A stretch of DNA of 64,000 nt from an uncultured Erysipelotrichaceae bacterium (GTDB lineage: Bacteria; Bacillota_I; Bacilli_A; RFN20; CAG-826), in NCBI GenBank assembly GCA_902800025.1, contig CADCDA010000001.1, positions 88,288 to 152,287 on the forward strand, given 5' to 3'. Shown here piece by piece: positions 1,912-55,966 of this stretch (position 1 is its first letter; the number at the start of each line of letters is the position of its first letter). The notes under the pieces are model-generated. The model had not been told where the DNA came from. It searched no databases and saw nothing but the letters and a program-made list of their open reading frames with translations. Both the position numbers and the translations under genes were made by a program.

Positions 1912-4524
1912 CTATTCGCCTTTATAAGCTTTCTTTAAGATTTCTTTCATGTCTTCCACGAGTGGAACTCTTGGATTACATGGTGAACATTGATCTTCAA
2001 AGGCGAGAACCGCAACACGATCAAGCTTTGACATATATTCTTCTTCAGAAATACCATAGCTTGCAAAGTTATCGCTTAAGCCAATTGAAGTTTGTAAATC
2101 ATGACATGCTTTCGCTAATGATTCAACACCTTCTGCTGGAGTAGATGCTGGTAAACCTAATAAACGAGCGATATCTTGATATTTCTTATCAGCGCAGTAT
2201 TCATTATATTTTGGCCACACAGATAATTTTGTTGGAACTTGTCCGTTATATCTAATGACATATGGGAGAAGAACACCACATGTATGTCCGTGAACTGTAT
2301 GGAATTCAGCGCCAACTTTATGGGCTAATGAGTGAGTCATTCCTAAGAATGCGTTTGCGAATGCCATACCAGCAATAGTTGCGGCATTATGCATCTTTTC
2401 ACGAGCTTCTAAGTCATGAGTACCGTCTTTGACTGCTCTTGGTAAATATTTGAAGACTAATTCAATAGCCTTAATGGCTAAACCATCAGTAAAGTCACTA
2501 GCCATAACAGAGACATATGCTTCAATCGCATGAGTAAGAACATCCATACCTGTCATAGCGGTTGCTTTTGGAGGTAAGTTTGTTGTAAATTCGGCGTCGA
2601 CAATTGCCACTGTTGGAGTTAATGAATAGTCAGTAAGAGGATATTTCTTATTATTCTTTTTATCAGAAATAACCGCAAATGGAGTCACTTCACTACCGGT
2701 GCCAGAAGTGGTTGGAATACAAATTAAACGGGACTTCTTGCCTAATTCAGGATATTTGAAGGCTCTCTTTCTAATATCCATGAATTTTTGTTTTAAGTCA
2801 TCGAAGTTGACTTCTGGATGTTCATAGAATAACCACATTCCTTTAGCGGCGTCCATGACTGAACCACCACCTAAAGCGATAATGACATCAGGTTTGAAGA
2901 TTTTCATCATCTCCGCGCCTTTTCTTACTGTTTCAATATCTGGATCTGGTTCAACATCACAGAATAATTGCATTTGTACTTTATTTCTTCTTAAGTTAAG
3001 TTGATCAGCAATCTTCTTGAAGAAGCCGAATTCCACCATTGAGGTATCGGTAACGATAAAGGCTTTATTAATATCTTTACAAGATTTTAAATATTGAATT
3101 GAATTACGTTCAAAATAAATTTTTGAAGGAACTTTAAACCACTGCACTGTATTTCTCCTTTTACCAACTTTTTTGATATTTAATAAGTTGATGGCGCTGA
3201 CGTTTCCACCGATTGAGTTATGGCCATAACTACCACAGCCCAAAGTCATTGATGGGAGGAAGGAATTATAGATATTTCCGATTCCACCAAAGGAAGATGG
3301 TGTATTCCAGATAATTCTCATCGCTGGAACTTTTTCACCGAAAGCATCCGCCATTGATTGATCAGCGCAGTGAATAGCCGCGCTATGTCCCATTCCATTA
3401 AATGAGACCATTTGGAATGATTTTTCAAATCCTTCTTTATCGTCTTTAACTTTAAAGAATGCCAATACTGGAGAAAGTTTTTCTCTACTGATTGGTTCTT
3501 CTGGTCCAACGGTCTTACATTCAACACCGATAACTGATGTATCTTTAGGAATTTCAAATCCAGCTTGGGAAGCAATCCAATATGGGGATTTACCAACGAT
3601 ATCAGCGTTAAGTTTAGCTTTTTCAACGCCTTCATCTCCTGAAGCGTAGCCAAACATAAATCTAGATAATTTCTTCTTTTCTTCTTTATTTACAAAGTAA
3701 ACTTTGAATTTCTTAAATAAAGCAATTGCTTCATCATAAATTGCTTCATCGATAATCGCTGCTTGTTCAGAAGCACAAACCATACCATTATCGAAAGATT
3801 TAGAACTAACGATATCATTTACTGCTTGTTCAACATTACAGCTCTTATTCATATACGCTGGAACATTACCTGCTCCAACACCCATTGCAGGTTTGCCACA
3901 GCTATAAGCTGCTTTAACCATTGCGTTACCACCAGTAGCAAGAATTGTAGCAACTCCTGGGTGATTCATTAACGCAGATGTCGCTTCCATACTTGGGTGT
4001 TCAATCCATTGAATGCAATCTTTAGGAGCACCAGCCTTAACAGCGGCGTCTCTCATAATAATTGCAGCTTCTTTAGAACATTGTTGGGCATTTGGATGGA
4101 ATGCAAAAATGATTGGGTTTCTTGTTTTTAATGAAATTAAACATTTAAAGATAACTGTACTTGTTGGGTTTGTAACTGGGGTAATACCGCAAATAACACC
4201 AACTGGATCAGCGATTTCGGTAATACCAGTGACTGGGTCATCACTAATAACTCCGACAGTTTTTAAATGTCTCATGTTATTAACGACATATTCACATGCG
4301 AAGAGGTTCTTTGTTGCTTTATCTTCGAAAATTCCTCTTTTTGTTTCATTAATTGCACTTGCAGCGAGTGTGCCGTGATGATCTAATCCAGCAACTGAAC
4401 ACTTAGCGACGATATGATCGATTTGTTCTTGATCAAGATAAAGAAATTCGTCTAACGCAACTGTTGCTTTTTTTACTAGTGCATCAACTTCTTCTTGTGG
4501 GCTAATAATCTTCTCTTTTTCCAT
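1912..4524 (-). CDS. adhE: Bifunctional acetaldehyde-CoA/alcohol dehydrogenase
   Basis: 870 aa: N-terminal aldehyde dehydrogenase domain followed by a C-terminal iron-containing alcohol dehydrogenase domain (GGGSVMD, His-rich metal site). Confidence 0.92.
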   Translation of the reverse strand: MEKEKIISPQEEVDALVKKATVALDEFLYLDQEQIDHIVAKCSVAGLDHHGTLAASAINETKRGIFEDKATKNLFACEYVVNNMRHLKTVGVISDDPVTGITEIADPVGVICGITPVTNPTSTVIFKCLISLKTRNPIIFAFHPNAQQCSKEAAIIMRDAAVKAGAPKDCIQWIEHPSMEATSALMNHPGVATILATGGNAMVKAAYSCGKPAMGVGAGNVPAYMNKSCNVEQAVNDIVSSKSFDNGMVCASEQAAIIDEAIYDEAIALFKKFKVYFVNKEEKKKLSRFMFGYASGDEGVEKAKLNADIVGKSPYWIASQAGFEIPKDTSVIGVECKTVGPEEPISREKLSPVLAFFKVKDDKEGFEKSFQMVSFNGMGHSAAIHCADQSMADAFGEKVPAMRIIWNTPSSFGGIGNIYNSFLPSMTLGCGSYGHNSIGGNVSAINLLNIKKVGKRRNTVQWFKVPSKIYFERNSIQYLKSCKDINKAFIVTDTSMVEFGFFKKIADQLNLRRNKVQMQLFCDVEPDPDIETVRKGAEMMKIFKPDVIIALGGGSVMDAAKGMWLFYEHPEVNFDDLKQKFMDIRKRAFKYPELGKKSRLICIPTTSGTGSEVTPFAVISDKKNNKKYPLTDYSLTPTVAIVDAEFTTNLPPKATAMTGMDVLTHAIEAYVSVMASDFTDGLAIKAIELVFKYLPRAVKDGTHDLEAREKMHNAATIAGMAFANAFLGMTHSLAHKVGAEFHTVHGHTCGVLLPYVIRYNGQVPTKLSVWPKYNEYCADKKYQDIARLLGLPASTPAEGVESLAKACHDLQTSIGLSDNFASYGISEEEYMSKLDRVAVLAFEDQCSPCNPRVPLVEDMKEILKKAYKGE

Positions 4525-4525
4525 A

Positions 4526-5158
4526 TTAGTTCTTCTCCTTATTACTTAACTTATGTTGTAAAATGGCAAAACTACTTGCCATATTTATATTTTCTATAAC
4601 GACGTCATCACCGACATTTAAATGTACTGGAACAAAGTTCCAAATCCCTTTAATTCCTGCGTTCACTAAACGGTCAGCGTTATCTTGAGCAGCAGAAAGA
4701 GGAACAGCGAGAATCGCTATTTCTAACCCTAATTCATCTATCTTGTTTGATAATTGGTAGACACTGTAAATATCTTTTCCGTTAACTTGGCTACCAACTA
4801 AATTTGAGTCGATATCAAATCCACAAACAATATCCAAACCAAAATCATTAAAACCTTTATAGTTCATTAAGGCTTTGCCTAAATGACCAACACCGACAAC
4901 CGCTGCTTTTGTGAGATTGTCATAATGTAAAAAAGCTTTAATATCTTCAATTAATTCATTAATATCTCTACCTAATTTAGGTTTTCCATTATTTGATGAG
5001 ACAACTTGCAAATCTTTTCTTACTTGTTCTTCAGAAAAAGAAAGCGCATTAGCGATCACAGGAGATGAAATGGTCTTATAACCACTATCGCGCATAGATA
5101 ATAAATATTTAAGGTATATAGGGAATCGTTCTAGTTGTCTTTCGGATACTTGTTTCAT
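4526..5158 (-). CDS. rex: Redox-sensing transcriptional repressor Rex
   Basis: 210 aa with an N-terminal winged helix and a Rossmann GxGxxG motif (VGVGHLGKAL). The stop codon lies 1 nt from the adhE start, the classic rex-adhE pairing. Confidence 0.88.
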   Translation of the reverse strand: MKQVSERQLERFPIYLKYLLSMRDSGYKTISSPVIANALSFSEEQVRKDLQVVSSNNGKPKLGRDINELIEDIKAFLHYDNLTKAAVVGVGHLGKALMNYKGFNDFGLDIVCGFDIDSNLVGSQVNGKDIYSVYQLSNKIDELGLEIAILAVPLSAAQDNADRLVNAGIKGIWNFVPVHLNVGDDVVIENINMASSFAILQHKLSNKEKN

Positions 5159-5234: not shown

Positions 5235-6986
5235 TTAATTTTCGAACTGAAGTTTATAAAGGTTATAATAATAACCTTGCTTATCAATTAGTTCCTGATG
5301 ATTACCACTTTCGATGATTTCTCCGTGCGATAAAACAATAATTTTATCTGCGTTTTGAATTGTTGAAAGTCGATGCGCGACGATGAGCATTGTTCCAATG
5401 TTTTTGATTTTAGATAAGCTTTCTTGAATAACGAGTTCAGTTTCTGTATCAATATTCGCAGTTGCTTCATCAAGAATCATTATTTGTGGTTTATGGATAA
5501 TTGTTCTAGCAAAAGACAATAACTGTCTTTGTCCTGTAGAGAAGTTCTCTCCTTTTTCCACTATTCCTTCTTCAAGTCCATTATCAAGTTGATTGATAAA
5601 AGTATCCGCATTGACATATTTAATCGCATCATTGATTTCTTGGTCACTAAATGAATCATCAAATAAAGTGATATTTTCTTTAATAGTTCCGGTAAAAAGG
5701 AATACATCTTGAAGCATCTGCCCTACTCCTCTTCTTAAAGAAGAGAGTTTAATTGTGTTGATATCAATATCATCAATAAGTATTTGTCCACTTTGAATTT
5801 CAAAATTTCTAACTATTAAATTTAGAATTGTGGTTTTACCAGCTCCTGTAGCGCCGACAAAAGCAATAGTCTCCTTAGGATTAATAACGAATGAAACATC
5901 TTTTAAAATCCAGTTTTCTTTGTCATAAGAGAAATAAACGTGTATAAATTCAATCTTTCCTTTAAACTCACTAATTTCAATTGAGTCTTTTCGATCAACA
6001 ACCTCTGGAACGATATCGAAAAGATTAAATAATCTTTCAATCGCACTTGTTGCTCTAGTAACGTGATTAAGCGCATCGGCAAGAGATTGAATTGGTTCAA
6101 AGAAATAATTAAGGAATAAATAGAAGCTAACGATAACTCCAGCGGAAAGCCCTAGTCTTACGCCCATGTAGATGATAAGAGCAACAGACAATATATAAAT
6201 GAGCGACACTAAAGGTCGATATAAAGAGAAGGCAATAGTAACAGCATATTTAGTTTTAAAGAATTCATGATTCTTTTCTTTAAATATCTTGTTATATTTT
6301 TCTTCTTGTTTAAATAATTGAATAATCTTCATTCCAGAAAGAGATTCATTTAAAAATGAATTGAGATCAGATAGCTGCGCTCTTTCTCTAACAAATATCT
6401 TATGGACTTGTTTCCAGAACACTAAAGAAATAATAAAGATGATAACTGTAACACCAGTCATAATTAGACCAAGTTCCACCGATAAAATAAGCATCCAAAT
6501 ATATACTGCAGTAACAGTTAATAAATCTCTAACAATCATCACTAATGTTCCAGTAAAAAATTCACTTAATTGAGAAGTGTAACTACATACCCTGGTAACT
6601 AAAGAGCCAACCGCCATGTCGTTGAATTGGCTTTGAGACATATTTTCAACGTGTTCAAAAACTTCCATTCTTAAGGAATAGACGATTCTTTGACCAGCTT
6701 TTGTTAAAATCATGCTTTCAATCATTACTAGTGATTGAGTAACAAATGCTACAAAGAAAACTAAGCACGCAATAATGATAATTGTATCTAAGATAACATC
6801 ATCTCTAACGATATAGTCGGTAAAGTAGCCTGTAATACGAGGAGAGATAACACCAAGGAATACGTTAACAAAGATTAGTAAAAGAGAAATAGCGAAAGCT
6901 TTCTTTTCTTTGCGAACATATTTCCAAGTACGTTTTAAAAGCGTTTTGGTTGGTATCTTTTTATGCTCTAATAAGTCTTTCACCAC
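5235..6986 (-). CDS. ABC exporter, fused permease/ATP-binding subunit (ABCB-type, heterodimer partner)
   Basis: Six-TM N-terminal domain plus C-terminal NBD (Walker A GATGAGKTT, signature FSTGQRQLLSFAR, Walker B ILDEAT). Confidence 0.85.
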   Translation of the reverse strand: MVKDLLEHKKIPTKTLLKRTWKYVRKEKKAFAISLLLIFVNVFLGVISPRITGYFTDYIVRDDVILDTIIIIACLVFFVAFVTQSLVMIESMILTKAGQRIVYSLRMEVFEHVENMSQSQFNDMAVGSLVTRVCSYTSQLSEFFTGTLVMIVRDLLTVTAVYIWMLILSVELGLIMTGVTVIIFIISLVFWKQVHKIFVRERAQLSDLNSFLNESLSGMKIIQLFKQEEKYNKIFKEKNHEFFKTKYAVTIAFSLYRPLVSLIYILSVALIIYMGVRLGLSAGVIVSFYLFLNYFFEPIQSLADALNHVTRATSAIERLFNLFDIVPEVVDRKDSIEISEFKGKIEFIHVYFSYDKENWILKDVSFVINPKETIAFVGATGAGKTTILNLIVRNFEIQSGQILIDDIDINTIKLSSLRRGVGQMLQDVFLFTGTIKENITLFDDSFSDQEINDAIKYVNADTFINQLDNGLEEGIVEKGENFSTGQRQLLSFARTIIHKPQIMILDEATANIDTETELVIQESLSKIKNIGTMLIVAHRLSTIQNADKIIVLSHGEIIESGNHQELIDKQGYYYNLYKLQFEN

Positions 6987-8779
6987 TACTCTCCTTTCTT
7001 TGTACTCAGCTGTTGTAAAAGAACCATTCTTGAGAACGTTCCTTCTTGTTTCAAAAGGTTGCTTGGGGTATCAAAAGCCTCAAGAGACCCCTTATTTAAG
7101 ACAATTACCTTATCGGCGCCCATGACTGTTGAGACACGAGAAGCGACGATAATTGTGGTTTTTCCTGCTCTTTGTTCTCTTAAATTCTTTAAGATATTTT
7201 GCTCAGTTTTTAAATCAACCGCACTAACAACATCGTCTAAGATTAAAATTTGTGAATCTTTATAGAAGGCCCTTGCTAAAGATATTCTTTGCTTTTGTCC
7301 ACCAGAAATAGTCGCCCCGTTTTCAGCGATGACTGTCTCTTCTTTATTTTCAAATTCATCTAAGTCTTTTTTAAGATCGCTATAAAGAATTGCTTCACGA
7401 AGTTTAACTTCATCAAGGTTATTATTATCAAAGATAATGTTTTCTTTAATAGAGCCACTAAAAAGGAAATTATCTTGAGGAGAATAAGCAAAGCCTTCTC
7501 TTAAAGAAGATAGCTTAATATCCATAATGTCATTATCATCAATATAAACTTGGTTTCTATTTACGTTATAAAGTCTAGTTAATGTATTGACTAAAGTGGA
7601 CTTCCCACTACCAACTGCACCGACAATTCCAATTAATTCCCCTTCTTTTATTTCTAAAGAAATATCTTTTAAAGAATCTTTACTTGCTCCTTCATATCTA
7701 AACGAGAAATGATCTAATTTGATATTCCCTTTAATCTCAACATCCTTTGCGTTCTCATTGTCTTTAATGTTTATTGGTATATCTAAAAAGTTAGCCACTC
7801 TTCGATAAGAGGTTCTGGCTTTAGAAAACATCGTTATCACTTGCCCCAAAGCGATCATTGGCCACACTAAAGTGTAAAAATATCCTTGGAATGTAACGAG
7901 CTGTCCAGGATCTAATTCAATTTTATACCCAAACATAACAATCGGATTATGGGTGACTGTTGCATAAACAAACCAACCACCAAAACCTAATATAATTGCC
8001 GATACCAAAGCAACTATAATACCAATAAGAACATCAAACAAAACTGAAATATAAGTAAATTTAACGTTCGCTTCACTATTTGCTAAAGCAAGTTTATTAA
8101 ACTTATGAATTTGTTGTCTTTCTTTAACAAAGGCTTTAATCACTCTAATACCTGTAAATGATTCTTGAGAGAAATCATATAATCGGTCATTGCTTTCTTG
8201 CCTTAGTCTCCATCTATTTGACATATGCGTTTCACATAACGCGCCTGCTAGTGCAATTAAAAGGATTGGGAAAATAGCGATAAACGCTAGGTTTCGGCTC
8301 AAAATGAACATTTTTACCAGAGCTAAGACTGTTAGGAAAACACCATCAATAACCATCAAAGAACCCCATCCAAGGAACTCTTGTAGGGTTTCTAAATCAT
8401 CTGTGGCCCAGCTCATAATGTTTCCAACTTTATTATTATGATAATAAGAAACATCGAGTTTCTCGGCTTTTTCAAACATTTCTTTTCTTAAATTCTCTTC
8501 AATTCGTTTAGAAGCATAGAACAAAGAAAGCCTCCAAACAATTCTTCCAACAAATAAAACTACCGCAATCACGATAGTGCTTAATATCGTTTGGATGAAT
8601 TCTTGACTTTGAACGTCAATCGTTCCTTCTTTGTCAAGCTTATCAACTAGGCCACCGATGATTTCTGGGATTCGTAATTGAAATATATCAACAGTCACTA
8701 ACGCTGCAAGGCCAATTAAAAAGAAGATAATAAATCTCGGGTAATATTTCCTAACATATTTTCCCCAAATGAGTAACAT
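6986..8779 (-). CDS. ABC exporter, fused permease/ATP-binding subunit (ABCB-type, heterodimer partner)
   Basis: TMD plus NBD (GAVGSGKST, ISGGQKQRISLARA, ILDD). Overlaps the downstream partner gene by 1 nt, indicating translational coupling. Confidence 0.85.
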   Translation of the reverse strand: MLLIWGKYVRKYYPRFIIFFLIGLAALVTVDIFQLRIPEIIGGLVDKLDKEGTIDVQSQEFIQTILSTIVIAVVLFVGRIVWRLSLFYASKRIEENLRKEMFEKAEKLDVSYYHNNKVGNIMSWATDDLETLQEFLGWGSLMVIDGVFLTVLALVKMFILSRNLAFIAIFPILLIALAGALCETHMSNRWRLRQESNDRLYDFSQESFTGIRVIKAFVKERQQIHKFNKLALANSEANVKFTYISVLFDVLIGIIVALVSAIILGFGGWFVYATVTHNPIVMFGYKIELDPGQLVTFQGYFYTLVWPMIALGQVITMFSKARTSYRRVANFLDIPINIKDNENAKDVEIKGNIKLDHFSFRYEGASKDSLKDISLEIKEGELIGIVGAVGSGKSTLVNTLTRLYNVNRNQVYIDDNDIMDIKLSSLREGFAYSPQDNFLFSGSIKENIIFDNNNLDEVKLREAILYSDLKKDLDEFENKEETVIAENGATISGGQKQRISLARAFYKDSQILILDDVVSAVDLKTEQNILKNLREQRAGKTTIIVASRVSTVMGADKVIVLNKGSLEAFDTPSNLLKQEGTFSRMVLLQQLSTKKGE

Positions 8780-9292
8780 TTATTCTTTTGTCTCCTCTTT
8801 AATTTTCTTCTGATTGCGTCGATGAATTAAATAGTAAACCAAAAATGTAATTCCTCCAAATAATAGATATCCAGAGAAATCAATTAAAATATCAGTAAAA
8901 GCAAACGCTCTTCCAGGAGCGGTTAATTGTAATAGTTCACTAATAACAGCAACTGATAAACCAAGCGCTAAAGAATTGATGACAATTCTCTTTTTCATCT
9001 TATCAAAATCAGTGTGTCCAAAAATGAATGTTAGAGTTGTTAAAATACCGCTAACACCAAATAGTCCGAAGTGTCCGATTAATTTCCTCACCAAATGGTG
9101 AGCGAATTCTGGATCAGTCGCAATTCTTGAATTAGGCGCTATTGCTTTAAAGATATTTATAATGAATTGAGTAATCCCTAAACTCTGTGAAGAACTACCA
9201 CTCGCATCTACTGCGCCTTCGATCAAAATGAAAATATTTATCGCGATTGATAAGGCTAGAAAAATAAAAAATAGTATCCTTCTCTTTTTCAT
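8780..9292 (-). CDS. VanZ-like family membrane protein
   Basis: 170 aa with 4-5 TM segments and VanZ-family topology. Its stop abuts the ABC exporter start, so the three genes are probably co-transcribed. Confidence 0.55.
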   Translation of the reverse strand: MKKRRILFFIFLALSIAINIFILIEGAVDASGSSSQSLGITQFIINIFKAIAPNSRIATDPEFAHHLVRKLIGHFGLFGVSGILTTLTFIFGHTDFDKMKKRIVINSLALGLSVAVISELLQLTAPGRAFAFTDILIDFSGYLLFGGITFLVYYLIHRRNQKKIKEETKE

Positions 9293-9343: not shown

Positions 9344-10462
9344 ATGACAGTAGAAAAAATCAATGAACTCATTATAAATATCCTCGGTGAAGGGGCAAAA
9401 ATCGACCACGAAATGTTAGGTGGTATGATGAATATGTCTTACCAAGTCGTAGACAAAAATGGTAAGAAATATATCCTTTATATTCCAACCGAACAAGCTA
9501 ATGAAATGGTGGACCGTGTTTTAGAAAAAGAGCACCAAAGAATCATTTACGAATTAGGTATCACAAGCAAGAATGTTTATTTCGATGAAAAGACCGGTAT
9601 TAAAATGAACGAATTTATCGAAGGAGATTCCATCAATAATATCGCTTCTTTTGATTATGATAAAATTGCTGCATTATTCAAAAAGTTACATAGCTCAATC
9701 ATGCTATCTAGAAAAGACTACGCTCCATTTACTAGATTTACTGAAATCTATGAAAAAGAAGCCCTTGAATTTAATAAAGAAATTTCTCCTTTATATACTG
9801 AATTAAGGGACTTCCTATTCGCTAAACGTGATTTTTTAGAGTCTCAACCACTCGTTTTATCTCATAACGACGCTCAAAGAAGTAACATTGTCAAAACTCC
9901 TAATGATGAATACTATTTTATCGATTTTGAGTTCGTTGGAAATAACGATCCAATTTATGATATTGCGGCCTTTGGTAACGGTTTAGTGTCCGAAGGAAGA
10001 AAATTATTAGAAAAATATTTTAACGGTAACCCAACTGATAATGAAATTAGAAGATACTATTTATGGAGAATCTACATTTCCTTGCAGTGGTATAACGTCG
10101 CCATCACTAAACATTATCGCGGAGAAGGTGAGAAACATGGTTTCAACTTCTTAGATGTCGCTACTCATTTCTTAAATAACGCCAAAGATGCTTATGATGG
10201 ATATCATCTAGAAATTAGAGATAAAGAAGTTGAAGATGACACTATCGCTTTAATCATCACCACCTTAGATAAAGTTAGACATTTCTTAAGAAAAGATGGA
10301 GGAGACTGTGAATTTGTTTCCTTTGAAAATGGAGTGGTCTATGTCAAAATGCAAGGAGCCTGCGAAGGTTGCTCATTCGCTTATAATGACATTAAAGATT
10401 TAGTGGAAGTCATCCTCCAAGAAGAAGTTCCTGGAGTAGTTGAAGTTCGACTCGCGGAGTAA
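9344..10462 (+). CDS. Choline/aminoglycoside-kinase-like phosphotransferase fused to a C-terminal Nfu/NifU-like Fe-S domain
   Basis: Residues 1-300 carry the Brenner motif HNDAQRSNIV and IDFEF (ChoK/APH fold). Residues 300-372 match the NifU C-terminal domain (DGGDCEFVSFENGVVYVKMQGACEGCS). Confidence 0.6.
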   Translation: MTVEKINELIINILGEGAKIDHEMLGGMMNMSYQVVDKNGKKYILYIPTEQANEMVDRVLEKEHQRIIYELGITSKNVYFDEKTGIKMNEFIEGDSINNIASFDYDKIAALFKKLHSSIMLSRKDYAPFTRFTEIYEKEALEFNKEISPLYTELRDFLFAKRDFLESQPLVLSHNDAQRSNIVKTPNDEYYFIDFEFVGNNDPIYDIAAFGNGLVSEGRKLLEKYFNGNPTDNEIRRYYLWRIYISLQWYNVAITKHYRGEGEKHGFNFLDVATHFLNNAKDAYDGYHLEIRDKEVEDDTIALIITTLDKVRHFLRKDGGDCEFVSFENGVVYVKMQGACEGCSFAYNDIKDLVEVILQEEVPGVVEVRLAE

Positions 10463-16069: not shown

Positions 16070-18859
16070 TTACTGTAAACACTCAATCGCATTAAGTTTC
16101 GAGATTTTTCTCGAAATGAGTAAAGAACTAAGTAAAGATATCGTTAGAGCGACACCAATCATATATAAAAGTGAAAGAGGATTTAGTACGAACACAGATT
16201 CAACGTATAAAAGTTCAGACATCGTTTTTGATAAGACTATAGAGACAACAAGCAACTCAATAGATGAGAAAACAAACGAAAGTCCAGTCATCATTAATGA
16301 ATGAAAATAGACGAATTTTCGACTCTCTTTTTCTTTAACTCCTAAGCATCTTACAAGTCCGATATCTTTCTTAATCTCCATAAAATGGAGGTAGTTACAA
16401 ATAAAAAGAATAAGAGCCGCGATTATGACACTTGTAACAGAAACAATTAGCATAATGGTTTCGATATATCCACAAATCTTATCAACGCTATCTTTGACAT
16501 CTTTTAAGGGAGCATTAACTGATAACTGTGGAAACGCCCGATTTAGTTTTTGAATAATTGCCTCTTCATTTCCTTCATCAATTCTAATTGCGAGATTATT
16601 TATTCTTAATTCAAATGTCGATATTCCTAACATCGCTTGGAAAAAGAGAATCGACCAAGACTCGTGATGAGAAATTGAAAGTTTACCACTATCAGTTATA
16701 CCGACTATTTTTAAAGGTGCAATTTCAAATTCTCTGGTCACATATCCATTCGCTAATAAGTTCTCCTTAATTGGGAAAGAGAGATAGATAAACTTATTGA
16801 GCGGATCATTAATTTCTAATCGATTTGCTAGACTACTACTGATGAGGATTTCTTGAAAATTAGCGGGTTCCCTACCTGTTAACAAAGAATAATGTGGCTC
16901 AAACACAAATCCATTCAGACTGCTTTTTGAGAAATGCCCTTCTAATATTTCATCTGGTACATTTACATTTAATGAGTCCTCATATTTGATATAAGACATA
17001 TTATCGTTAATGTCCCAAATATATTCTTCTTTATTGGATAAATATGTCATCCTAGAAAAGCCCATCATGAGGCTTTGTTCATAAATAGAATAGCCGACAT
17101 TACTTCCATAAGTTACTTCATACACCCCTTTAGTGGTCTTTTTACAATAATCACCGATAAAAGAAGGAATATCATCCTTATTAGTGCGATGAATCATCAT
17201 CACTCTTGGACAGTGATATGTTTCTATATCCTCATATAAAATTGGATAATATTTTTTATCAAGTATTTCAAAATCGATATCTTCATTTTCTAAAGAAAAT
17301 CTATTATCCATTAAAAAGGCATCTCTACCACTAGAGAAATTCATATAGAAAGATTTGATTAACGCCCAAGGATATTCGCTATTTATATTAATGTTTTTTG
17401 TCGATGGCAAATGAGCTTCGTTTTCAAGCATATATTCATTCCATATTGGATTGGAATGGTAGATAAGTGTTTTACTTGATAAGACAAACGATTTTAAACT
17501 CAATGGAATTCGGACTTCATATTCCCAGTTTTCATTTGCTAAACAAAATAAAAGATTTAGACCATTATTCTCGATATAGTTTGATAAAGATTTGACCGTT
17601 CTTGCTATTCCAAGCTGATAACATAGTTCATTAATTGTCAGCATCGGCATTGACAAAACTACCTCATTATCTTGTAGGGAATCCACTGTTTTTGGGTATT
17701 GATCTCCTTGGATGTTTTCTAATAATTCAAATTCATTTATGTGTTCAGCGTTAAAAGATCCAATGGGTCTAGTAACATCTGTATCAATTGATAGGAAGTT
17801 ATCTGTTGGAAACAAATATCCAGTGTTCCAATAATAGACTCCTATCCGACTAATACCTTTGTTATACTTAACTATTTCATTTACTTCACTATAAGTGGCC
17901 GAGGTGATTATATCTCTATTTGTTGTTGGGTTTTTCGATGAAACAACAAGTTTATCGCTATCGATGATTGCAGAATAGCTTCTGTACATATTAGTAGAGA
18001 TTATATCTCTAAGTGTGCTTGCTAATCCTACTCCAATTAACCCTAACGATGTAGATAGACTAATAAAAGCTGTCCTCCATTTTCTTCTTTTGATGGAATT
18101 AACCGTGTGATTAAACAAAAACTTAAAAGGCAAACTTTTCTTTTTATCATCATATTTAAGATCAATGATTGGCAAATACTCTTTATGAGGGTTGCGATTT
18201 TGATAATAATCTCCAATGGCTCTGCCATCTTTCATTTTGATTATTCTGTCCGCGTATTTTTTAGTTAATCCTTCATCATGGCTAACCATCACCACTAAAG
18301 AAAAAGCACTAACTTTTTTAAGTATTTCCATTACTATCTCGCTATTTTTATCATCCAAATTGCCAGTTGGTTCATCAGCGAGTAATAAAGAAGGGGAATT
18401 CGCTATTGCCCTAGCAATCGCCACTCTTTGTTTTTCTCCTCCGCTCAAATTTGATACCGGCTCATTAATTTTATGTAGGAGTCCCACTAATTTAAGTAGG
18501 TCTTCAACTCTTTTTGCTTTTTTAGCCTCCTTATCAACACCACATAAATTAATCGAAAGAAGAATGTTTTCTTTAACAGTTTCAAATTCAAATAGTTTAT
18601 AGTCTTGAAAGACAAATCCAATCTTTTTATTTCTTAACGTTTCTTTTTCTTTTTCACTCATTTGGCTATATTTTCTTCCGTCAAACACAATGTCACCCTT
18701 AAAGTCCATCAAAGATGACAGGATGTTTAAAAGAGTTGTCTTGCCACATCCGGAAGGACCATTAATAATAACTAAACCATATCGGGGGAGTCTTTTAGAA
18801 AAATTAGACAATACTTTTCTACCATCAAATTCCTTGGTGACATTTTCAATTCGTATCAT
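16070..18859 (-). CDS. Fused ABC ATP-binding/FtsX-type permease (MacB-like) with a roughly 500-aa extracytoplasmic domain
   Basis: N-terminal NBD (GPSGCGKTT, LSGGEKQRVAIARA, LLADEPT), one TM, a large ectodomain, and a C-terminal 3-TM FtsX-like bundle. Confidence 0.8.
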   Translation of the reverse strand: MIRIENVTKEFDGRKVLSNFSKRLPRYGLVIINGPSGCGKTTLLNILSSLMDFKGDIVFDGRKYSQMSEKEKETLRNKKIGFVFQDYKLFEFETVKENILLSINLCGVDKEAKKAKRVEDLLKLVGLLHKINEPVSNLSGGEKQRVAIARAIANSPSLLLADEPTGNLDDKNSEIVMEILKKVSAFSLVVMVSHDEGLTKKYADRIIKMKDGRAIGDYYQNRNPHKEYLPIIDLKYDDKKKSLPFKFLFNHTVNSIKRRKWRTAFISLSTSLGLIGVGLASTLRDIISTNMYRSYSAIIDSDKLVVSSKNPTTNRDIITSATYSEVNEIVKYNKGISRIGVYYWNTGYLFPTDNFLSIDTDVTRPIGSFNAEHINEFELLENIQGDQYPKTVDSLQDNEVVLSMPMLTINELCYQLGIARTVKSLSNYIENNGLNLLFCLANENWEYEVRIPLSLKSFVLSSKTLIYHSNPIWNEYMLENEAHLPSTKNININSEYPWALIKSFYMNFSSGRDAFLMDNRFSLENEDIDFEILDKKYYPILYEDIETYHCPRVMMIHRTNKDDIPSFIGDYCKKTTKGVYEVTYGSNVGYSIYEQSLMMGFSRMTYLSNKEEYIWDINDNMSYIKYEDSLNVNVPDEILEGHFSKSSLNGFVFEPHYSLLTGREPANFQEILISSSLANRLEINDPLNKFIYLSFPIKENLLANGYVTREFEIAPLKIVGITDSGKLSISHHESWSILFFQAMLGISTFELRINNLAIRIDEGNEEAIIQKLNRAFPQLSVNAPLKDVKDSVDKICGYIETIMLIVSVTSVIIAALILFICNYLHFMEIKKDIGLVRCLGVKEKESRKFVYFHSLMMTGLSFVFSSIELLVVSIVLSKTMSELLYVESVFVLNPLSLLYMIGVALTISLLSSLLISRKISKLNAIECLQ

Positions 18860-20952
18860 AGGCTCTGTAATTCTCCTTTGATTGATTTTCTTTTAGAAAA
18901 TGAAATAGGAATTAAAGTAGAAAAAGAAACCACTAGCATCACGACAAGAACAATAAGTAATGGGAATAGAAACTTAATACCAAGGAATTCTAAAAACGGA
19001 ATTACAATAAGTTCCTTAATATCTAAATACTTATATATAAGAATATTGGCTAGTTTCATTAGGCCAAATGAAATACAAACCGATAAAAGAATAGACAAAA
19101 ACCCGTTTACCATTGATTCTTGTAAATAGATTTCTTCTATTTGATCACTAGAAGCTCCAATTGAAGATAAAATAGCGCTTTTCTTATGATCTTCCGAAAA
19201 GCTAGTAAAAGACATTATGCTTAAAATTAGTAATGCTCCAACAAACGCAATAACTAGGAAAAGAATGACACCATATTCTGCGACAGAAAGAAAATTAAAA
19301 AGCGAATCAGTAAGTACCATGGACTGACTCGTGAAGACAAGACCATCACTGAAAATAGAATTATCAAACGGAGTAATCCTATCATTAAAATTCTTCAAAA
19401 ATAGCAAATATGAATATGAAGAAATAATCGCATTATTGTCAGCGTTCATTACTCTATCGTACCAAGTAATATCTTCGTTATTGTAGGTTGATAGATTAAC
19501 TAGAATATAATCTTTACAATATTCTTCAATAGCTAAATAGGAGTAATAGATTTTAGGAGTTGGTAAATAGTTAATTTCTTCAACGATGGCAGAAATTTTT
19601 ATTTTCTTATTCAATCTAAAAATATCATTGACATATTCTTCGGTGTTCGTGACATAAGTCGTTTCAGTTTCATGCTCGATAGTCAAATACTCATTAAGTG
19701 GGTTTTTGCCAATTTCTTTTCTAATTAGATTAGCGGCGCTTTGATTGATTATAACTTCATCGATTGCGGCTTCATCTGGAAGCGTTCCATCCACTATTAA
19801 ACTCCTATCAATATGCTGCCTATCAAATGAGTATATTGGAGTGAATAATAAATCATCAACTATCTCATCATCATATAAAATCTTAATATTTTGTGGGAGA
19901 ATTGCCGAAAAGTTTATGCAAATCTCATATTTTTCAGAAATTTTGGAATTAGACTTAAGGTTTTCATAGTCAGGTCTAGATGACTTGGTTAAAGAAAGCA
20001 TTCCACTCCCTCCAGTTGACGTTTCTTTTGAAACACTTCCAGAGCCAAAATCAAGCTGTTTATAGCACGCCTCCTTTATTGACTTATCCTTGTTATTTAT
20101 AAACCCAACCACTAAATATAGCATCGATAAAACAATCGTTAACGCCACCGAACTAAAGACGTTTCTTTTTATTCTTCTTTTATAGTTACTACTTGCAATT
20201 CGATTGATCCACGATGAACTTCTTTTCATCTGTTTTTTACTAAAACGAATGCTATCTTCTTTTTTATTAATTACTTCATCTTTTACAATTTGGCCATTTG
20301 CTATTTCAATAATTCTATCAGAGTACTGTTTTGTTATTTGAAGGTTATGCGACACCATGATGACTAGCGTGTTTTCACTAATCTTTTTTATTAGTTCCAT
20401 TACATTAGTGGTGTTATCAGAATCTAATGCGCCAGTCGGTTCGTCACACAATAAAATTTTAGGGTCATTCACTATAGCTCTAGCAATACTGACTCTTTGC
20501 TTTTCTCCTCCAGATAATTTGCTTGCTTTTAGATTAAACAGTTCTTCTTTAATCCCCACCATCTTTAAGGATTTAATTGCCTTTTCTTTGCTTTTCTTTG
20601 CGGAATCTCCTTTGATAAGAGAAGGCAATTCGACATTATATAGAACCGTTTCTTCATCTATTAAATTGTAGTTTTGAAACACGATTCCGATATCTTGATT
20701 AAAGAATGTCGTATTTGTTCTTTTATTAAACGATTTATAAGGTCGCCCATATAAATAGATTTCTCCTTCTGTAGGTGTATCAATTCTTGCTATAAGATTT
20801 ATAAGCGTTGATTTCCCACTTCCAGATTTTCCATTAATCGCCACTATTCCTGTTGAATCAAACGATAGATTAATGGGGCCGAGTGCAGTAAAAAAACGAT
20901 CTTTTCCGATTGGGTATCGCTTTGCTAAATTCTTAATTAAAAGTGTTTTCAT
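18856..20952 (-). CDS. Fused ABC ATP-binding/FtsX-type permease (MacB-like), paralogous partner
   Basis: NBD (GKSGSGKST, LSGGEKQRVSIARA, LLCDEPT) plus ectodomain plus FtsX-like C-terminus. Its stop overlaps the downstream gene start by 4 nt (ATGA). Confidence 0.8.
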   Translation of the reverse strand: MKTLLIKNLAKRYPIGKDRFFTALGPINLSFDSTGIVAINGKSGSGKSTLINLIARIDTPTEGEIYLYGRPYKSFNKRTNTTFFNQDIGIVFQNYNLIDEETVLYNVELPSLIKGDSAKKSKEKAIKSLKMVGIKEELFNLKASKLSGGEKQRVSIARAIVNDPKILLCDEPTGALDSDNTTNVMELIKKISENTLVIMVSHNLQITKQYSDRIIEIANGQIVKDEVINKKEDSIRFSKKQMKRSSSWINRIASSNYKRRIKRNVFSSVALTIVLSMLYLVVGFINNKDKSIKEACYKQLDFGSGSVSKETSTGGSGMLSLTKSSRPDYENLKSNSKISEKYEICINFSAILPQNIKILYDDEIVDDLLFTPIYSFDRQHIDRSLIVDGTLPDEAAIDEVIINQSAANLIRKEIGKNPLNEYLTIEHETETTYVTNTEEYVNDIFRLNKKIKISAIVEEINYLPTPKIYYSYLAIEEYCKDYILVNLSTYNNEDITWYDRVMNADNNAIISSYSYLLFLKNFNDRITPFDNSIFSDGLVFTSQSMVLTDSLFNFLSVAEYGVILFLVIAFVGALLILSIMSFTSFSEDHKKSAILSSIGASSDQIEEIYLQESMVNGFLSILLSVCISFGLMKLANILIYKYLDIKELIVIPFLEFLGIKFLFPLLIVLVVMLVVSFSTLIPISFSKRKSIKGELQSL

Positions 20953-21031
20953 AAAAAAGTCCTCTCATATTAATAAGAGGAGAAAAAATCGATTTTTTTA
21001 AAAATTTTCTTAAACTTTTTTTATTTTTTTA

Positions 21032-30085: not shown

Positions 30086-30430
30086 GTCTTCGATCCTGTA
30101 AGCCATGTTTTGTCTAGGATGATAATTTATCTAAGAATATTCTTACTTGAGTTGATTCGGTTCTCTATCAAGTCTCCCCTACCAAATTTGGGTTTCTCGC
30201 TTACGGGGTTTACCGCGTTCCACTTTGCTCTTTCAAACAAACTTCGTCACTGTGGCACTTTCAGGAATCCTACCATGGGTTGCCCTTTAGGTCGATTTCC
30301 GCCGTCACGCACTCCTACGTGCCTAGTGTTATTTTTTCCACTAGCGCAATCACTACAGCCGTCACAGACTGTGCGAGCATGGACTTTCCTCTAACTAACT
30401 AGTAGCCAGCAATCATCCAGATCGAAGGTT
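30086..30430 (-). ncRNA. rnpB: RNase P RNA, Bacillus type (type B)
   Basis: The minus strand contains AGAGGAAAGTCCATGCTCGCACAG, GGGCAACCCATGG, AAAGTGCCACAGTGACGAAG, GGAACGCGGTAAACCCC, GAAACCCAAATTTGGTAGGGGA and ACAAAACATGGCTTACAGGATCGAAG. The P1 helix pairs CCTTCGATC with GATCGAAG. It lies immediately downstream of gpsB, as in Bacillus subtilis. Confidence 0.85.
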
Positions 30431-30793
30431 TTATCTTATTTCTTCGGGATTCATATTTAGCTTTTCGTAAATAATCATCTCCAACTTCCCGATACGTTGA
30501 AGAAGTTCGTAGTTATCAATATGGATATCTTTACGATCTTTGGAAATATATTTCCATTTATTTCTTTCTTTTTCTAGTTCTTCTTTTAATTCGGCGTTTG
30601 CTTTCCTTAATTCTTCTAATTCTTTGGCAACTTTTTCAGTGTCAATTCCACTAGGAATATTCTCATAAGTCTCATAGTCTTCAATAATCTTATCTAAGAC
30701 TTTATCAACCTCAAGAGGATCATATCCACGTGGGGTATTAGAGAATCTCTTATTAAGGAGCTCTTTACTAGTAAAATTAATCTTTTTATCCAT
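30431..30793 (-). CDS. gpsB: Cell-cycle protein GpsB / DivIVA-domain protein
   Basis: 120 aa with an N-terminal DivIVA domain (FSNTPRGYDPLEVDKVLD) and a coiled coil. Confidence 0.75.
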   Translation of the reverse strand: MDKKINFTSKELLNKRFSNTPRGYDPLEVDKVLDKIIEDYETYENIPSGIDTEKVAKELEELRKANAELKEELEKERNKWKYISKDRKDIHIDNYELLQRIGKLEMIIYEKLNMNPEEIR

Positions 30794-30923
30794 ATCTCTT
30801 ATATTATCTCTTATATTAAATTATTTTTCTATGAAAAATTACTGAATATAGCACAAAATATTTAATAATTTGATTTTCATTTTCTTGAAAAGAAGATTTC
30901 ACACTTATAAACTTATTACGAAT

Positions 30924-31649
30924 ATGAAACGAGTATTAAAAAATTTTAAAGGCCATAAGCATCTCTGCTTCCTCGATTTCGAAGGAACACAATTCTCTCA
31001 CGAAATGATTGCCTATGGCGCTGTCCTAGTTACCATCGATAAAGAAGGTAACATAGTTAAACAAAAGCCTGCATTAAAGAAATATGTCAGAGCTAAAAAC
31101 GCAGTCGGCAAATACGTTGAAAATCTTACAGGTATCACTAGATTAGACTTGGATCGTTTTGGCGTTAGTTTTTCAGTCGCCATGAAAGACTTGAAAAAAT
31201 ATTGCGGTATTCATTTTAAAGGTTGTTCATTTTTAACATTTGGAAATCACGATATCAGAATCTTAAATCAATCAATCTCATATAACTTAGATGCTCCAAA
31301 AGATTTATGCACAGTAATTAAAAGCAACTATGTTGATTTCCAAGCAATCCTCGCTGAATTCATTAAGGATGACCACAATAATCCATATTCATTAACAAAC
31401 TATTTAAACGTCTTCAATTTAGAGTTTGATGGTGAAGCACATGATCCAGAATATGACGCTGTTAATCTTATGAGATTATATCAAGCATTCATGAAAGACA
31501 CTGATGTTATTGAAAAAGAATTTTTCAAGAATATGAAAAGACACACATTTAATCCAGCGCCAATTGATAGAGTAATCAAAGACTTACTCGATGGCAAGAC
31601 AGTAACACCAGAAGATTTCAAATCATATATTGATAACTATATCGAATAG
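30924..31649 (+). CDS. DEDDh-family 3'-5' exonuclease (DnaQ/KapD-like)
   Basis: Exo I motif FLDFEGT, exo III HDPEYDAVNLMRLY. Start assigned at the ATG at 30924 (MKRVLKNF) rather than the upstream non-ATG extension in the ORF track. The stop lies 1 nt before the recU start. Confidence 0.7.
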   Translation: MKRVLKNFKGHKHLCFLDFEGTQFSHEMIAYGAVLVTIDKEGNIVKQKPALKKYVRAKNAVGKYVENLTGITRLDLDRFGVSFSVAMKDLKKYCGIHFKGCSFLTFGNHDIRILNQSISYNLDAPKDLCTVIKSNYVDFQAILAEFIKDDHNNPYSLTNYLNVFNLEFDGEAHDPEYDAVNLMRLYQAFMKDTDVIEKEFFKNMKRHTFNPAPIDRVIKDLLDGKTVTPEDFKSYIDNYIE

Positions 31650-31650
31650 T

Positions 31651-32244
31651 ATGAAATATCCTAACGGGCAAGAATATAAACCAAATTCAAAAAAAGAAAG
31701 ACAATCTCATAAATCAAAAGCTGAGATTTCTTTAAGCAGCGCCAATAGAGGTATGGACCTCGAACACGAGATCAATTTATCTAATGATTATTACCGTGAT
31801 CACGACATCTGTTTAATCACAAAGAGGCCGACTCCTATCAATATTGTAAAAGTTGACTACTCAAAAGGCGCTAAAATTACACACGCCTATTTTGAAGAAC
31901 AATCAACCACCGACTATAACGGAGTGTATAAATCTCGCTATATTGATTTCGAAGCTAAAAATACCAAAAACAGGACTTCATTCCCGTTAAGCAATATCAC
32001 CAAACACCAGATCGAACATCTTAAAAGGGTACTATTCCACGGAGGAATTGCTTTCTTCATCATTAACTTTGAATCATTAGGAAAAATCTATTTATTAGAT
32101 GCAAGTTATGTGATTGAGTTTTATGAACACGGAGAAAGAAAATCAATTCCATATGACTGCTTTGTCACTAACGGAATTGAAATCGAACAAGGATATAATC
32201 CAAGAATTAATTATATAGAAGCAATTGAGAAGAAATACTTCTAG
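31651..32244 (+). CDS. recU: Holliday junction resolvase RecU
   Basis: MKYPNGQEY N-terminus parallels B. subtilis RecU (MIRYPNGK...). Conserved NRGM(x)LE motif and catalytic D/E residues. Start taken at Met-8 of the ORF-track model. Confidence 0.85.
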   Translation: MKYPNGQEYKPNSKKERQSHKSKAEISLSSANRGMDLEHEINLSNDYYRDHDICLITKRPTPINIVKVDYSKGAKITHAYFEEQSTTDYNGVYKSRYIDFEAKNTKNRTSFPLSNITKHQIEHLKRVLFHGGIAFFIINFESLGKIYLLDASYVIEFYEHGERKSIPYDCFVTNGIEIEQGYNPRINYIEAIEKKYF

Positions 32245-38388: not shown

Positions 38389-39372
38389 TTAATTTATATC
38401 AATATTTTCTTTAAGATAGTCATTTATGATGGTTTCTAAATCACCATAAGTATTCAATTCATTTGATAATCTTATCTTCAAATATCTTGAATTTGGAAAC
38501 CCATTAAAAAATTTAGAAGCTATGCCTCGATACATTCTCATTCCAACAAGCTCACCTTTTTCTTTTACATATTCTCTAGCGAGTTCTTTACATAGTTCAA
38601 CTTGCTCTAAACAAGTAGGAACCTCGATATCTTTGCCTTCAAAGTAACTATTGATGTTTTTAATGAGGTAAGGGTTACCAACTCCACCACGGGCCACCAT
38701 TACAGCATCGGCTCCTGTAATTTTAATTGCTTCTGCAGCATCTAAATAAGTATTGATGTTACCACTGACGATTAGAGGAATACTCATTTTACTTCTTAAA
38801 TCTTTCACCAATTCCCAATGTGGTAAACCACCATACATCTCTTTTGTGGTTCTTGGATGAATTGCAACAAGTGCCGCTCCAGCCTTCGTGACTTCATCAA
38901 TAACTTCTAAGAAGTTAACATGCTTAGAATCAATACCTAATCTAATCTTTACGGTAACTGGTTTATCCGTCACTTCTTTCATTGCTCTAACAATATCACC
39001 ACAAAGCTTTGGATTTTTCATTAAAGCCGAGCCTGCGCCAGTCTTAAAAACCTTGTTTACTGGACAACCCATATTGATATCAAAAAATGCGATATTTGGA
39101 TTTAATGACTCAGCGATTTTTACAGCTTTTGCCATTGTTTCTGGAGAACTACCAAACAGTTGAACACATGTAGGAAGTTCACTCTTTTCAAAATTTAAAT
39201 AGGAAAGCGTTTCTTTGTTTCCATAGATTAAACCCATATCAGAAATCATTTCAGTAACCACATATCCAGGTCCGAATTTTGACATGAATTTTCTGTAACC
39301 TAAAGATGTAATTCCCGCCATTGGAGCAAGAACTACCTTGTTCTTTATTTGGATGTCACCAATTTTAAACAT
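38389..39372 (-). CDS. dusB: tRNA-dihydrouridine synthase
   Basis: TIM-barrel Dus family (APMAGIT, catalytic Cys in NMGCP). Confidence 0.88.
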   Translation of the reverse strand: MFKIGDIQIKNKVVLAPMAGITSLGYRKFMSKFGPGYVVTEMISDMGLIYGNKETLSYLNFEKSELPTCVQLFGSSPETMAKAVKIAESLNPNIAFFDINMGCPVNKVFKTGAGSALMKNPKLCGDIVRAMKEVTDKPVTVKIRLGIDSKHVNFLEVIDEVTKAGAALVAIHPRTTKEMYGGLPHWELVKDLRSKMSIPLIVSGNINTYLDAAEAIKITGADAVMVARGGVGNPYLIKNINSYFEGKDIEVPTCLEQVELCKELAREYVKEKGELVGMRMYRGIASKFFNGFPNSRYLKIRLSNELNTYGDLETIINDYLKENIDIN

Positions 39373-48311: not shown

Positions 48312-48399
48312 GAAATGAATCTCCTTTTTTGTTATTGATTAATTATATCACTATTATAATTTGTTAAAAACAAATAAAAAAGATATACTATATGAGGTT

Positions 48400-51525: not shown

Positions 51526-51551
51526 TTCTTTATCTATTATTATCACAAGAA

Positions 51552-51571
51552 AAGACCTTTGCAAAGGTCTT
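51552..51571 (-). terminator. Terminator hairpin of the small C11 peptidase gene
   Basis: Perfect 20-nt palindrome AAGACCTTTGCAAAGGTCTT followed by a U-run on the minus strand. Confidence 0.6.
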
Positions 51572-51583
51572 TTTCATAGAAAC

Positions 51584-52933: not shown

Positions 52934-53007
52934 GTCTAGTCCTCCTTAACCCTCATTTAGGGTTATCTTATTATCCAACTTTTATATGATAAATTCCACT
53001 ATTTTCT

Positions 53008-53037
53008 TGTAAAAAAGAAAAGGCTGCACCGCAACCT
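53008..53037 (-). terminator. Terminator of the large C11 peptidase gene
   Basis: Minus-strand RNA hairpin GGUUGC-GGU-GCAGCC followed by UUUUCUUUUUU. Confidence 0.55.
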
Positions 53038-53058
53038 TCTCTATATTTTATATAGTTT

Positions 53059-55812: not shown

Positions 55813-55927
55813 CTTATTTGCCTTCTTCACTCTCTTTAGAGAGATAGTATATAATAGACCATCAAAAAGCATATGTCTATTATTATTTTCAAATAATAAA
55901 TGATAAAAAATTAAAAAATAAGATCCA

Positions 55928-55966
55928 ATCAAATATAAAAAATCACACCCATGTGCAGGTGTGATT
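55928..55966 (-). terminator. Rho-independent terminator of the opp operon
   Basis: Hairpin AATCACACC-TGCACATG-GGTGTGATT followed by UUUUUUAUAUUU on the minus strand. Confidence 0.7.

Follow-up and report, generated by a model that had tools for sequence, protein, structure and literature searches.

An overlapping pair of unequal MacB-fold ABC half-transporters from uncultured Bacilli, predicted to form one heterodimeric machine

Two overlapping genes in a 64,000-nucleotide stretch of DNA from an uncultured Erysipelotrichaceae bacterium (assembly GCA_902800025.1, contig CADCDA010000001.1, positions 88,288 to 152,287) encode ATP-binding cassette (ABC) proteins of the type VII, or MacB/FtsX-fold, superfamily. 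This whole stretch is called the window below, and coordinates are counted along it. Each of the two genes, A and B, specifies a half-transporter in which a nucleotide-binding domain (NBD) is fused to a first transmembrane helix (TM1), an ectodomain and a bundle of three further transmembrane (TM) helices of the FtsX type (TM2-TM4). The stop codon of A overlaps the start codon of B, which predicts that the two are translationally coupled. From their constant pairing and overlap in relatives, and by analogy with other paired ABC half-transporters, we infer that A and B are, on balance, likely to combine as unlike subunits of a single type VII ABC heterodimer. The features of the pair are given here with lengths in amino acids (aa) or nucleotides (nt) and with their evidence in parentheses (ORF, open reading frame; AF2, AlphaFold2).

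18856-20952, minus strand: gene A, the upstream member, a fused NBD-TM1-ectodomain-FtsX half-transporter of 698 aa (ORF, Pfam, AF2, Foldseek)
16070-18859, minus strand: gene B, the downstream member, a fused NBD-TM1-large ectodomain-FtsX half-transporter of 929 aa (ORF, Pfam, AF2, Foldseek)
18856-18859, minus strand: stop/start overlap of A and B, ATGA, 4 nt (sequence)
20263-20952, minus strand: NBD of A, residues ~1-230 (motif conservation)
20098-20160, minus strand: TM1 of A, residues ~265-285 (hydropathy; the AF2 helix 261-296 comprises TM1 and stalk)
19270-20097, minus strand: ectodomain of A, residues ~286-561, ~276 aa (mixed alpha/beta in AF2; column identity)
18883-19269, minus strand: FtsX bundle TM2-TM4 of A, residues ~562-690 (Pfam; AF2 helices 543-587, 602-643 and 662-687)
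18185-18859, minus strand: NBD of B, residues ~1-225 (motif conservation)
18011-18073, minus strand: TM1 of B, residues ~263-283 (hydropathy; AF2 helix 260-298)
16457-18010, minus strand: ectodomain of B, residues ~284-801, ~518 aa (AF2, column identity)
16091-16456, minus strand: FtsX bundle TM2-TM4 of B, residues ~802-923 (Pfam; AF2 helices 784-838, 848-884 and 894-920)

Pfam finds an ABC_tran domain at the N-terminus of both proteins (E = 2.9e-33 in A and 1.4e-31 in B) and an FtsX domain at the C-terminus (residues 563-690 of A, E = 1.9e-07; residues 805-923 of B, E = 1.4e-09). Hydropathy and AF2 secondary structure together place the three FtsX helices at residues ~562-680 in A and ~802-915 in B. 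Because these are long ORFs with matches of such E-values, the architecture lies far beyond chance. A preliminary description of this DNA, made from its letters, had proposed this same order of NBD, one TM helix, ectodomain and three-helix FtsX bundle in both proteins, an overlap of the genes by ATGA, and expanded, unequal ectodomains of about 500 and 300 aa. Pfam, hydropathy and AF2 bear out the domain order, and the overlap is evident at the junction, which reads CCT-ATGA-TAC with the ATG start of B overlapped by the TGA stop of A. The ectodomains come to 518 aa in B and 276 aa in A; these sizes count the stalk helices, and the globular parts are ~485 aa and ~246 aa, respectively. Clusters of basic residues occur before TM1 and after TM2 in both sequences, so the NBDs are expected to be cytoplasmic and the ectodomains to face outward.

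The alignments built for the two families contain 117 A-type and 109 B-type homologs. In the A family the core positions of Walker A (G41-T49) and of the signature (S147-Q152), the Q-loop glutamine (Q93), the Walker B and catalytic glutamate positions (D170 and E171) and the H-loop histidine (H202) are all invariant, and the same holds in the B family for the core positions of Walker A (G34-T42) and of the signature (S139-Q144), Q85, D162 and E163, and H194. Since these catalytic cores are invariant in both families, a complex of A with B would have two competent ATP sites. The two proteins are 32% identical over 372 aa, in an alignment that runs from the NBD through TM1 into the first part of the ectodomain (E = 3e-45), which at the level of sequence identifies them as paralogs.

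The predicted folds agree with the MacB-like, type VII architecture that the preliminary description had assigned. In the AF2 model of B the predicted local distance difference test score (pLDDT) averages 87.7 and does not fall below 50 in any segment, and the ectodomain blocks lie mostly at 84-94 with none below 74. For A the mean is 85.0, with ectodomain blocks mostly at 84-93. Both models display the hallmarks of MacB: TM1 is preceded by an amphipathic helix and is itself long, running on into the stalk; the ectodomain mixes alpha and beta structure; and TM2 forms a very long helix that is followed by two more TM helices. When the models are compared with the PDB by Foldseek, the top seven matches for A and B alike are full-length MacB chains (5lil, 5lj7, 5gko, 5lj6 and 5nik). 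The A matches have E = 9.5e-38 to 8.8e-29 with TMq of 0.57-0.64 and TMt (the TM-score normalised to MacB) of at most 0.73, and the B matches have E = 5.2e-32 to 3.5e-25 with TMt of 0.60-0.65. Sequence identity to MacB is just 13-20%. Canonical ABC ATPase motifs, four TM helices per module with an ectodomain between TM1 and TM2, and superposition of the fold are all found, and both proteins belong to the type VII superfamily. The prospect of disordered ectodomains, raised in the preliminary description as a point that could overturn it, is removed by these confidently folded models and by the conservation of both ectodomains.

Column identity is 0.50-0.73 in the A ectodomain and 0.46-0.75 in the B ectodomain, not far below that of the NBDs. 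Many aromatic, glycine, proline and asparagine residues of the ectodomains are invariant in the alignments of both families, and the B ectodomain has 25 invariant residues, from Y295 to P784. Pfam searches at E <= 5 returned no family, MacB_PCD included, for five ectodomains of each type, and profiles of the A and B ectodomains returned nothing meaningful against PDB sequences. Alignment of the two ectodomains with each other by hhalign matches one short stretch, weakly (E = 0.023). It reads L-x-G-R-x-P...E-I-V-I-S...L...P-L-N...L-K-I-V-G, lies near residues 660-725 in B, and resembles the Sabre-subdomain motif of MacB/LolC-type permeases. Between this Sabre-like region and the first Porter-like beta-alpha-beta unit, B contains ~350 residues for which neither A nor MacB has an equivalent. 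A duplication of the Sabre-like module inside the B ectodomain was considered and is not established: the N-terminal half aligns to the C-terminal half with E = 0.09 and a probability below 1%, and the aligned motifs (NEVVLS...LKSFVLS...H..W versus QEILISS...LKIVGIT...H..W) are suggestive to the eye without being significant. The N-terminal half of the B ectodomain gave nothing when aligned by hhalign with the A ectodomain.

An A-type gene lies directly upstream of a B-type gene in all seven distinct related loci that have enough upstream sequence. In each of the seven the A stop overlaps the B start, as ATGA (4 nt) or as ATGAnTnA (8 nt), in keeping with the translational coupling that the preliminary description had proposed. 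No lone A or B ortholog occurs in any locus examined, and that description's question of whether the pair holds together in relatives or is found as single genes is thus answered in favour of the pair. The identities of the related B proteins to B of the window are as follows; L015-L017 are three loci from a metagenome scan with closer alignment.

L001/L002: 61%
L015-L017: ~56%
L003/L004: 42%
L013 and L014: ~28%

The neighbourhood is conserved as well, with miaB, ylbF and miaA (with or without fhs or DUF951) upstream and ychF, ispF and argS downstream, sometimes with a cold-shock gene before them. Two homology searches yielded at least 40 A and B clusters with an identical longest-contig size, which serves as a proxy for a shared contig. 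An exhaustive HMMER search with the ectodomain and transmembrane domain (TMD) of B retrieved 569 representative clusters, 184 of them at E <= 1e-30, and full-length B-type members among the 569 are mostly 915-944 aa long, down to 23% identity. The organism names attached to family members are solely 'MAG: Bacilli bacterium' or 'uncultured Bacillales bacterium', and no cultured carrier was found among them. Automated annotation already gives 'ABC transporter ATP-binding protein/permease'.

The heterodimer is favoured because the two half-transporters are non-identical and always adjacent, because their overlap is always kept, and because both chains are strongly constrained. Constant adjacency combined with a start/stop overlap is the pattern of subunits of one complex, and heterodimeric TMDs have a precedent within the type VII class in LolCE (PMC5985334). 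If A and B instead form A2 and B2 homodimers, they would constitute two separate MacB-like machines that are co-transcribed and co-regulated. Canonical MacB and FtsX are homodimeric (PMC5985334), and the complete consensus NBDs of A and B could each form two sites with itself. This completeness also weighs against the heterodimer, as many obligate ABC heterodimers can be told by one degenerate site, an asymmetry that neither NBD shows here. The wider reading of a conserved surface machine is limited by ectodomains that lack recognisable sequence relatives beyond the family and so indicate no particular substrate, and by the fact that conserved synteny with housekeeping genes hints at a core role but is no proof of one. 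Separate homodimers are nonetheless difficult to reconcile with an overlap and 1:1 adjacency that persist in every locus from 61% to ~28% identity, as would be expected of subunits made in equal amounts, and no examined genome fragment carries one gene alone. We consider two homodimers unlikely.

Type VII ABC machines such as MacB, LolCDE, FtsEX, BceAB and YbbAP transmit force across the membrane and do not carry a solute through it. In a heterodimer of A and B, each chain would give one complete ATPase, a TM1/TM2 stalk, a three-helix FtsX bundle and its own ectodomain, and the assembled complex would combine two active ATP sites with an asymmetric outer crown (~276 + 518 aa). By analogy with MacB, LolCDE and FtsEX, closure of the NBDs by ATP would be relayed through the stalk helices to the ectodomains (mechanotransmission), and the work would act on a target at the membrane's outer surface, with no solute being carried across. 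This would probably be a constitutive envelope function that acts on an endogenous, conserved substrate or partner, since the pair has a fixed housekeeping position, vertical inheritance across a deep lineage and near-constant size, and is not accompanied by adaptor or sensor genes. One possible role is to extract or release a molecule that is lipid-anchored or embedded in the membrane (LolCDE-like or YbbAP-like), and control of the activity of a surface protein or enzyme (FtsEX-like) could be another. The preliminary description had named lipoprotein or adhesin release and antimicrobial-peptide extrusion as candidate tasks, for which the data give no direct evidence in either direction.

The pair might alternatively be a resistance pump for antimicrobial peptides, bacteriocins or macrolides, of the Gram-positive MacB/YknYZ/Lcn972 type, working as a heterodimer or as homodimers. 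This is the role of many Gram-positive MacB homologs (PMC5985334), and automated JGI annotation of relatives reads 'antimicrobial peptide transport system permease'. The NCBIfam model TIGR03608 (putative bacteriocin-export ABC) scores the two NBDs at 191 and 190 bits and does not reach its cutoff of 254.85. However, NBD scores of this size are generic, and FtsE, LolD and PhnC score similarly. A membrane-fusion adaptor of the HlyD/MacA type does not flank the pair in the window, L001, L003, L013 or L014, nor does one occur among the other window ORFs scanned. The window and the related loci examined likewise contain no histidine kinase or response regulator (such as a BceRS-like two-component system) and no bacteriocin or immunity gene. 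Furthermore, a housekeeping position with near-constant length over deep divergence is unusual for an accessory resistance module. The missing adaptor, two-component and bacteriocin genes, together with the fixed position, weigh mildly against an inducible peptide-resistance module. Detoxification of antimicrobial peptides is a possible function that is less favoured than a constitutive role at the surface, and we regard a resistance pump of this kind as doubtful.

Even less probable, in our estimation, is a lineage-specific analogue of FtsEX that transports nothing and whose ectodomains switch on a wall hydrolase or another division or envelope enzyme. FtsE (TIGR02673) is the best NCBIfam match of B, at 196 bits (180 bits for A), and does not reach its cutoff of 264.85. 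Housekeeping synteny and conserved ectodomains would suit the docking of a partner, and most RF39/ML615J-28 species are predicted to be thin-walled and to have lost many standard hydrolases and penicillin-binding proteins (PMC10868615). FtsEX itself has the type VII fold and a housekeeping role, transports nothing and controls a partner enzyme through its ectodomain. In contrast to the fused chains of A and B, FtsE and FtsX are separate proteins and FtsX is a homodimer with a small ectodomain. In addition, no hydrolase or coiled-coil activator gene adjoins the pair in the loci examined. That A and B are one gene split by a frameshift is rejected, as a complete NBD opens each ORF and the two-gene layout is kept in relatives.

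Comparison with the known type VII systems places the proposed A-B heterodimer near several of them and within none. MacB of the MacAB-TolC macrolide/enterotoxin pump (PDB 5lil, 5lj7, 5gko and 5nik) is the best structural match for both proteins. Like each of them it is a single polypeptide that opens with the NBD and continues through an amphipathic helix and TM1 to an extracytoplasmic domain and a TM2-TM4 FtsX domain. It is nevertheless a homodimer made from a single gene, whereas two unequal paralogs occur here, and it works with the MacA adaptor and TolC, whereas no adaptor gene lies near A and B. The periplasmic domain of homodimeric MacB has ~200 aa (PMC5985334). The ectodomains of A and B have ~276 and 518 aa, and neither matches Pfam MacB_PCD, the Porter-plus-Sabre type of periplasmic domain; that of B is ~2.5 times the size of its MacB equivalent. 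The NCBIfam model for MacB (NF007826) matches over the NBD and TM1 only, at 181 bits in A and 137 bits in B against a cutoff of 966.

LolCDE, a lipoprotein extractor, is also of type VII, and its two membrane proteins, LolC and LolE, are paralogs that differ from each other and share out the work. The system has a housekeeping role, and its substrate is lipid-anchored and sits in the outer leaflet. Its ATPase, LolD, is a polypeptide of its own, whereas in A and B an NBD is fused to each TMD. The ectodomains of LolC and LolE are similar in size and MacB-like, unlike those of A and B, and neither the LolA/LolB carriers nor an outer membrane are expected in Bacilli. The LolD model (TIGR02211) scores 190 bits in A and 175 bits in B and does not reach its cutoff of 307.75.

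BceAB and YbbAP, like the putative A-B complex, are type VII systems built from two non-identical FtsX modules with ectodomains that are unequal or present on only one module. In these systems both FtsX modules belong to one polypeptide of 10 TM helices with a separate NBD, whereas A and B are two 4-TM chains that each have their own. BceAB, a peptide-antibiotic sensing and detoxification module whose permease has one large loop, is furthermore linked to the BceRS two-component system, which has no equivalent among the genes at A and B. YbbAP is reported to extract hydrophobic compounds in concert with a surface hydrolase (PMC12646458).

Defining features tested for MacB proper, LolCDE, FtsEX and BceAB are absent from the pair; of the LolCDE features, the presence of two non-identical paralogs is shared, and these are always paired in the loci examined. 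The NBDs resemble those of FtsE, LolD, the lactococcin-972 exporter and MacB in a generic way, with scores below the curated cutoffs. The published survey of MacB-family arrangements includes fused and separate NBDs, homodimeric and heterodimeric TMDs, and tandem-fused TMDs; an NBD-fused heterodimer is not among them (PMC5985334). Our literature search likewise found no characterised Mollicutes homolog or MacB heterodimer homolog and no heterodimer of NBD-fused half-transporters. The domain architecture of A and B is already captured by automated annotation, and the novelty lies in the obligate pairing of unequal proteins, in ectodomains that are orphans by sequence and in the conserved core status in an uncultured lineage. 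If the heterodimer forms, it adds an NBD-fused member to the known type VII arrangements and offers a naturally asymmetric system for studying how a single ATPase cycle serves two unlike ectodomains. The pair is conserved and apparently belongs to the core surface equipment of a large gut lineage that is uncultured, and its function would inform how reduced-genome Bacilli maintain their surface. A more far-reaching possibility, to which we assign a low likelihood, is that A and B are a lineage-defining, essential envelope machine of the reduced-genome uncultured Bacilli that lie between Erysipelotrichales and Mollicutes. They would then be the first NBD-fused type VII heterodimer, the ~350-residue insertion of B would be a new docking or catalytic module, and the machine would take on an envelope task (handling of lipid, lipoprotein or glycopolymer, or control of a hydrolase) for which walled Bacilli use FtsEX-like or other systems that were lost in this lineage.

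The region just upstream of A contains a hairpin that may affect expression of the pair.

20960-20981, minus strand: terminator-like hairpin of 9 pairs with a T-run, which ends 7 nt before the ATG of A (scan; minimum free energy -11.2 kcal/mol)

The 3' arm of this hairpin, GAGAGGA, is the sole Shine-Dalgarno-like sequence before A. An equivalent hairpin between a Shine-Dalgarno sequence and its complement, again with a T-run, precedes the A-type gene in five of the seven related loci (L001, L003, L013, L016 and L017), and it recurs despite differing stem sequences and differing upstream genes. L014 has a different hairpin, and L015 shows weak folding only. Since the short leader of A (~80 nt) contains no good promoter match, the pair is probably expressed by read-through at a damped level, and the hairpin may damp or gate this expression. 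A promoter-like TTGTAA-16-TATAAT sequence follows the stop codon of B and would serve ychF. Comparably stable hairpins end a few nt before the start codons of some other window genes (for example, 38389-39372 and 53059-55932), and such structures may be a general trait of a compact genome rather than a dedicated control element. A dedicated riboswitch-like role for the hairpin before A was rejected on two grounds, the leader being just ~80 nt long and comparable hairpins standing before other genes.

The host is an uncultured member of the reduced-genome Bacilli, and the window lies on a contig of ~400 kb. Its DNA in the window has a GC content of ~34% and reads through with the standard genetic code, and a class B RNase P RNA (274 bits; 30094-30424, minus strand) is consistent with an organism of the Bacillota/Mollicutes type. 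The preliminary description had assumed a wall-less cell, and this premise is unsupported: related orders are mostly predicted to be walled, and the hints in the window are mixed. Field et al. (2024) predict thin peptidoglycan for most RF39 and ML615J-28 species and none for some RFN20 families (PMC10868615). No peptidoglycan genes were found in the 10-kb extensions beyond each window end, which bring the total to ~84 kb, a span that is not decisive on the presence of a wall.

Envelope hints within the window include a gene for a DUF368/VCA0040-like protein that resembles undecaprenyl-phosphate translocases (48361-49365, plus strand), a DivIVA/GpsB-like gene (30431-30793, minus strand) and the recU region (31630-32244, plus strand). 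The recU gene is followed by a convergent endonuclease III gene (nth), whereas in Bacillus subtilis the gene after recU is ponA, and this arrangement looks Mollicutes-like. A VanZ-like gene (8780-9292, minus strand) lies directly upstream of a second ABC pair that is described below. The DivIVA/GpsB-like, VanZ-like and DUF368 genes suggest some chemistry of lipid-linked envelope polymers. An unusual fusion of 372 aa (9344-10462, plus strand) joins a choline/ethanolamine kinase of the APH fold to a C-terminal NifU-like domain, and the kinase could be a sign that surface molecules are decorated with phosphocholine.

The second adjacent pair of ABC half-transporters in the window (ABC_membrane plus ABC_tran; 597 and 583 aa; 5235-8779, minus strand) consists of genes that have base 6986 in common. 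Such an arrangement is typical of heterodimeric type IV exporters. An Opp operon with expanded subunits occupies 55974-62515 on the minus strand. OppC has 736 aa, OppA has 1025 aa and lies just outside the window (L018 6903-9980), and the ABC domain of the 593-aa ATPase OppD is stretched over residues 28-427 by a large insertion. This expanded system resembles the Opp systems of Mollicutes. Beside the operon is a cluster of genes for large predicted proteases and Ig-like proteins (49393-55932 and 62746-63915, both minus strand, and L018 2750-6910). The cluster encodes a 957-aa fusion of Big_2 repeats to a clostripain C11 peptidase, a second C11 peptidase (449 aa), an M6-like protein (723 aa), a Big_2 protein (389 aa) and, just outside the window, an S8 peptidase of 1386 aa. 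The cluster suggests a peptide-scavenging lifestyle.

Two ORFs have no Pfam match at E <= 0.001 (47148-48311, minus strand, 387 aa; 30870-31649, plus strand, 259 aa). IS605 OrfB/TnpB-like genes or gene fragments occur near the syntenic block of a relative (Cas12f1-like_TNB; L001 14365-14796, minus strand) and on the contig of the window, ~7 kb beyond its low-coordinate end (L019 2678-2875, minus strand). Finally, a gene for a bifunctional AdhE adjoins one for a Rex-like redox repressor (Put_DNA-bind_N plus CoA_binding) at 1912-5158 on the minus strand.

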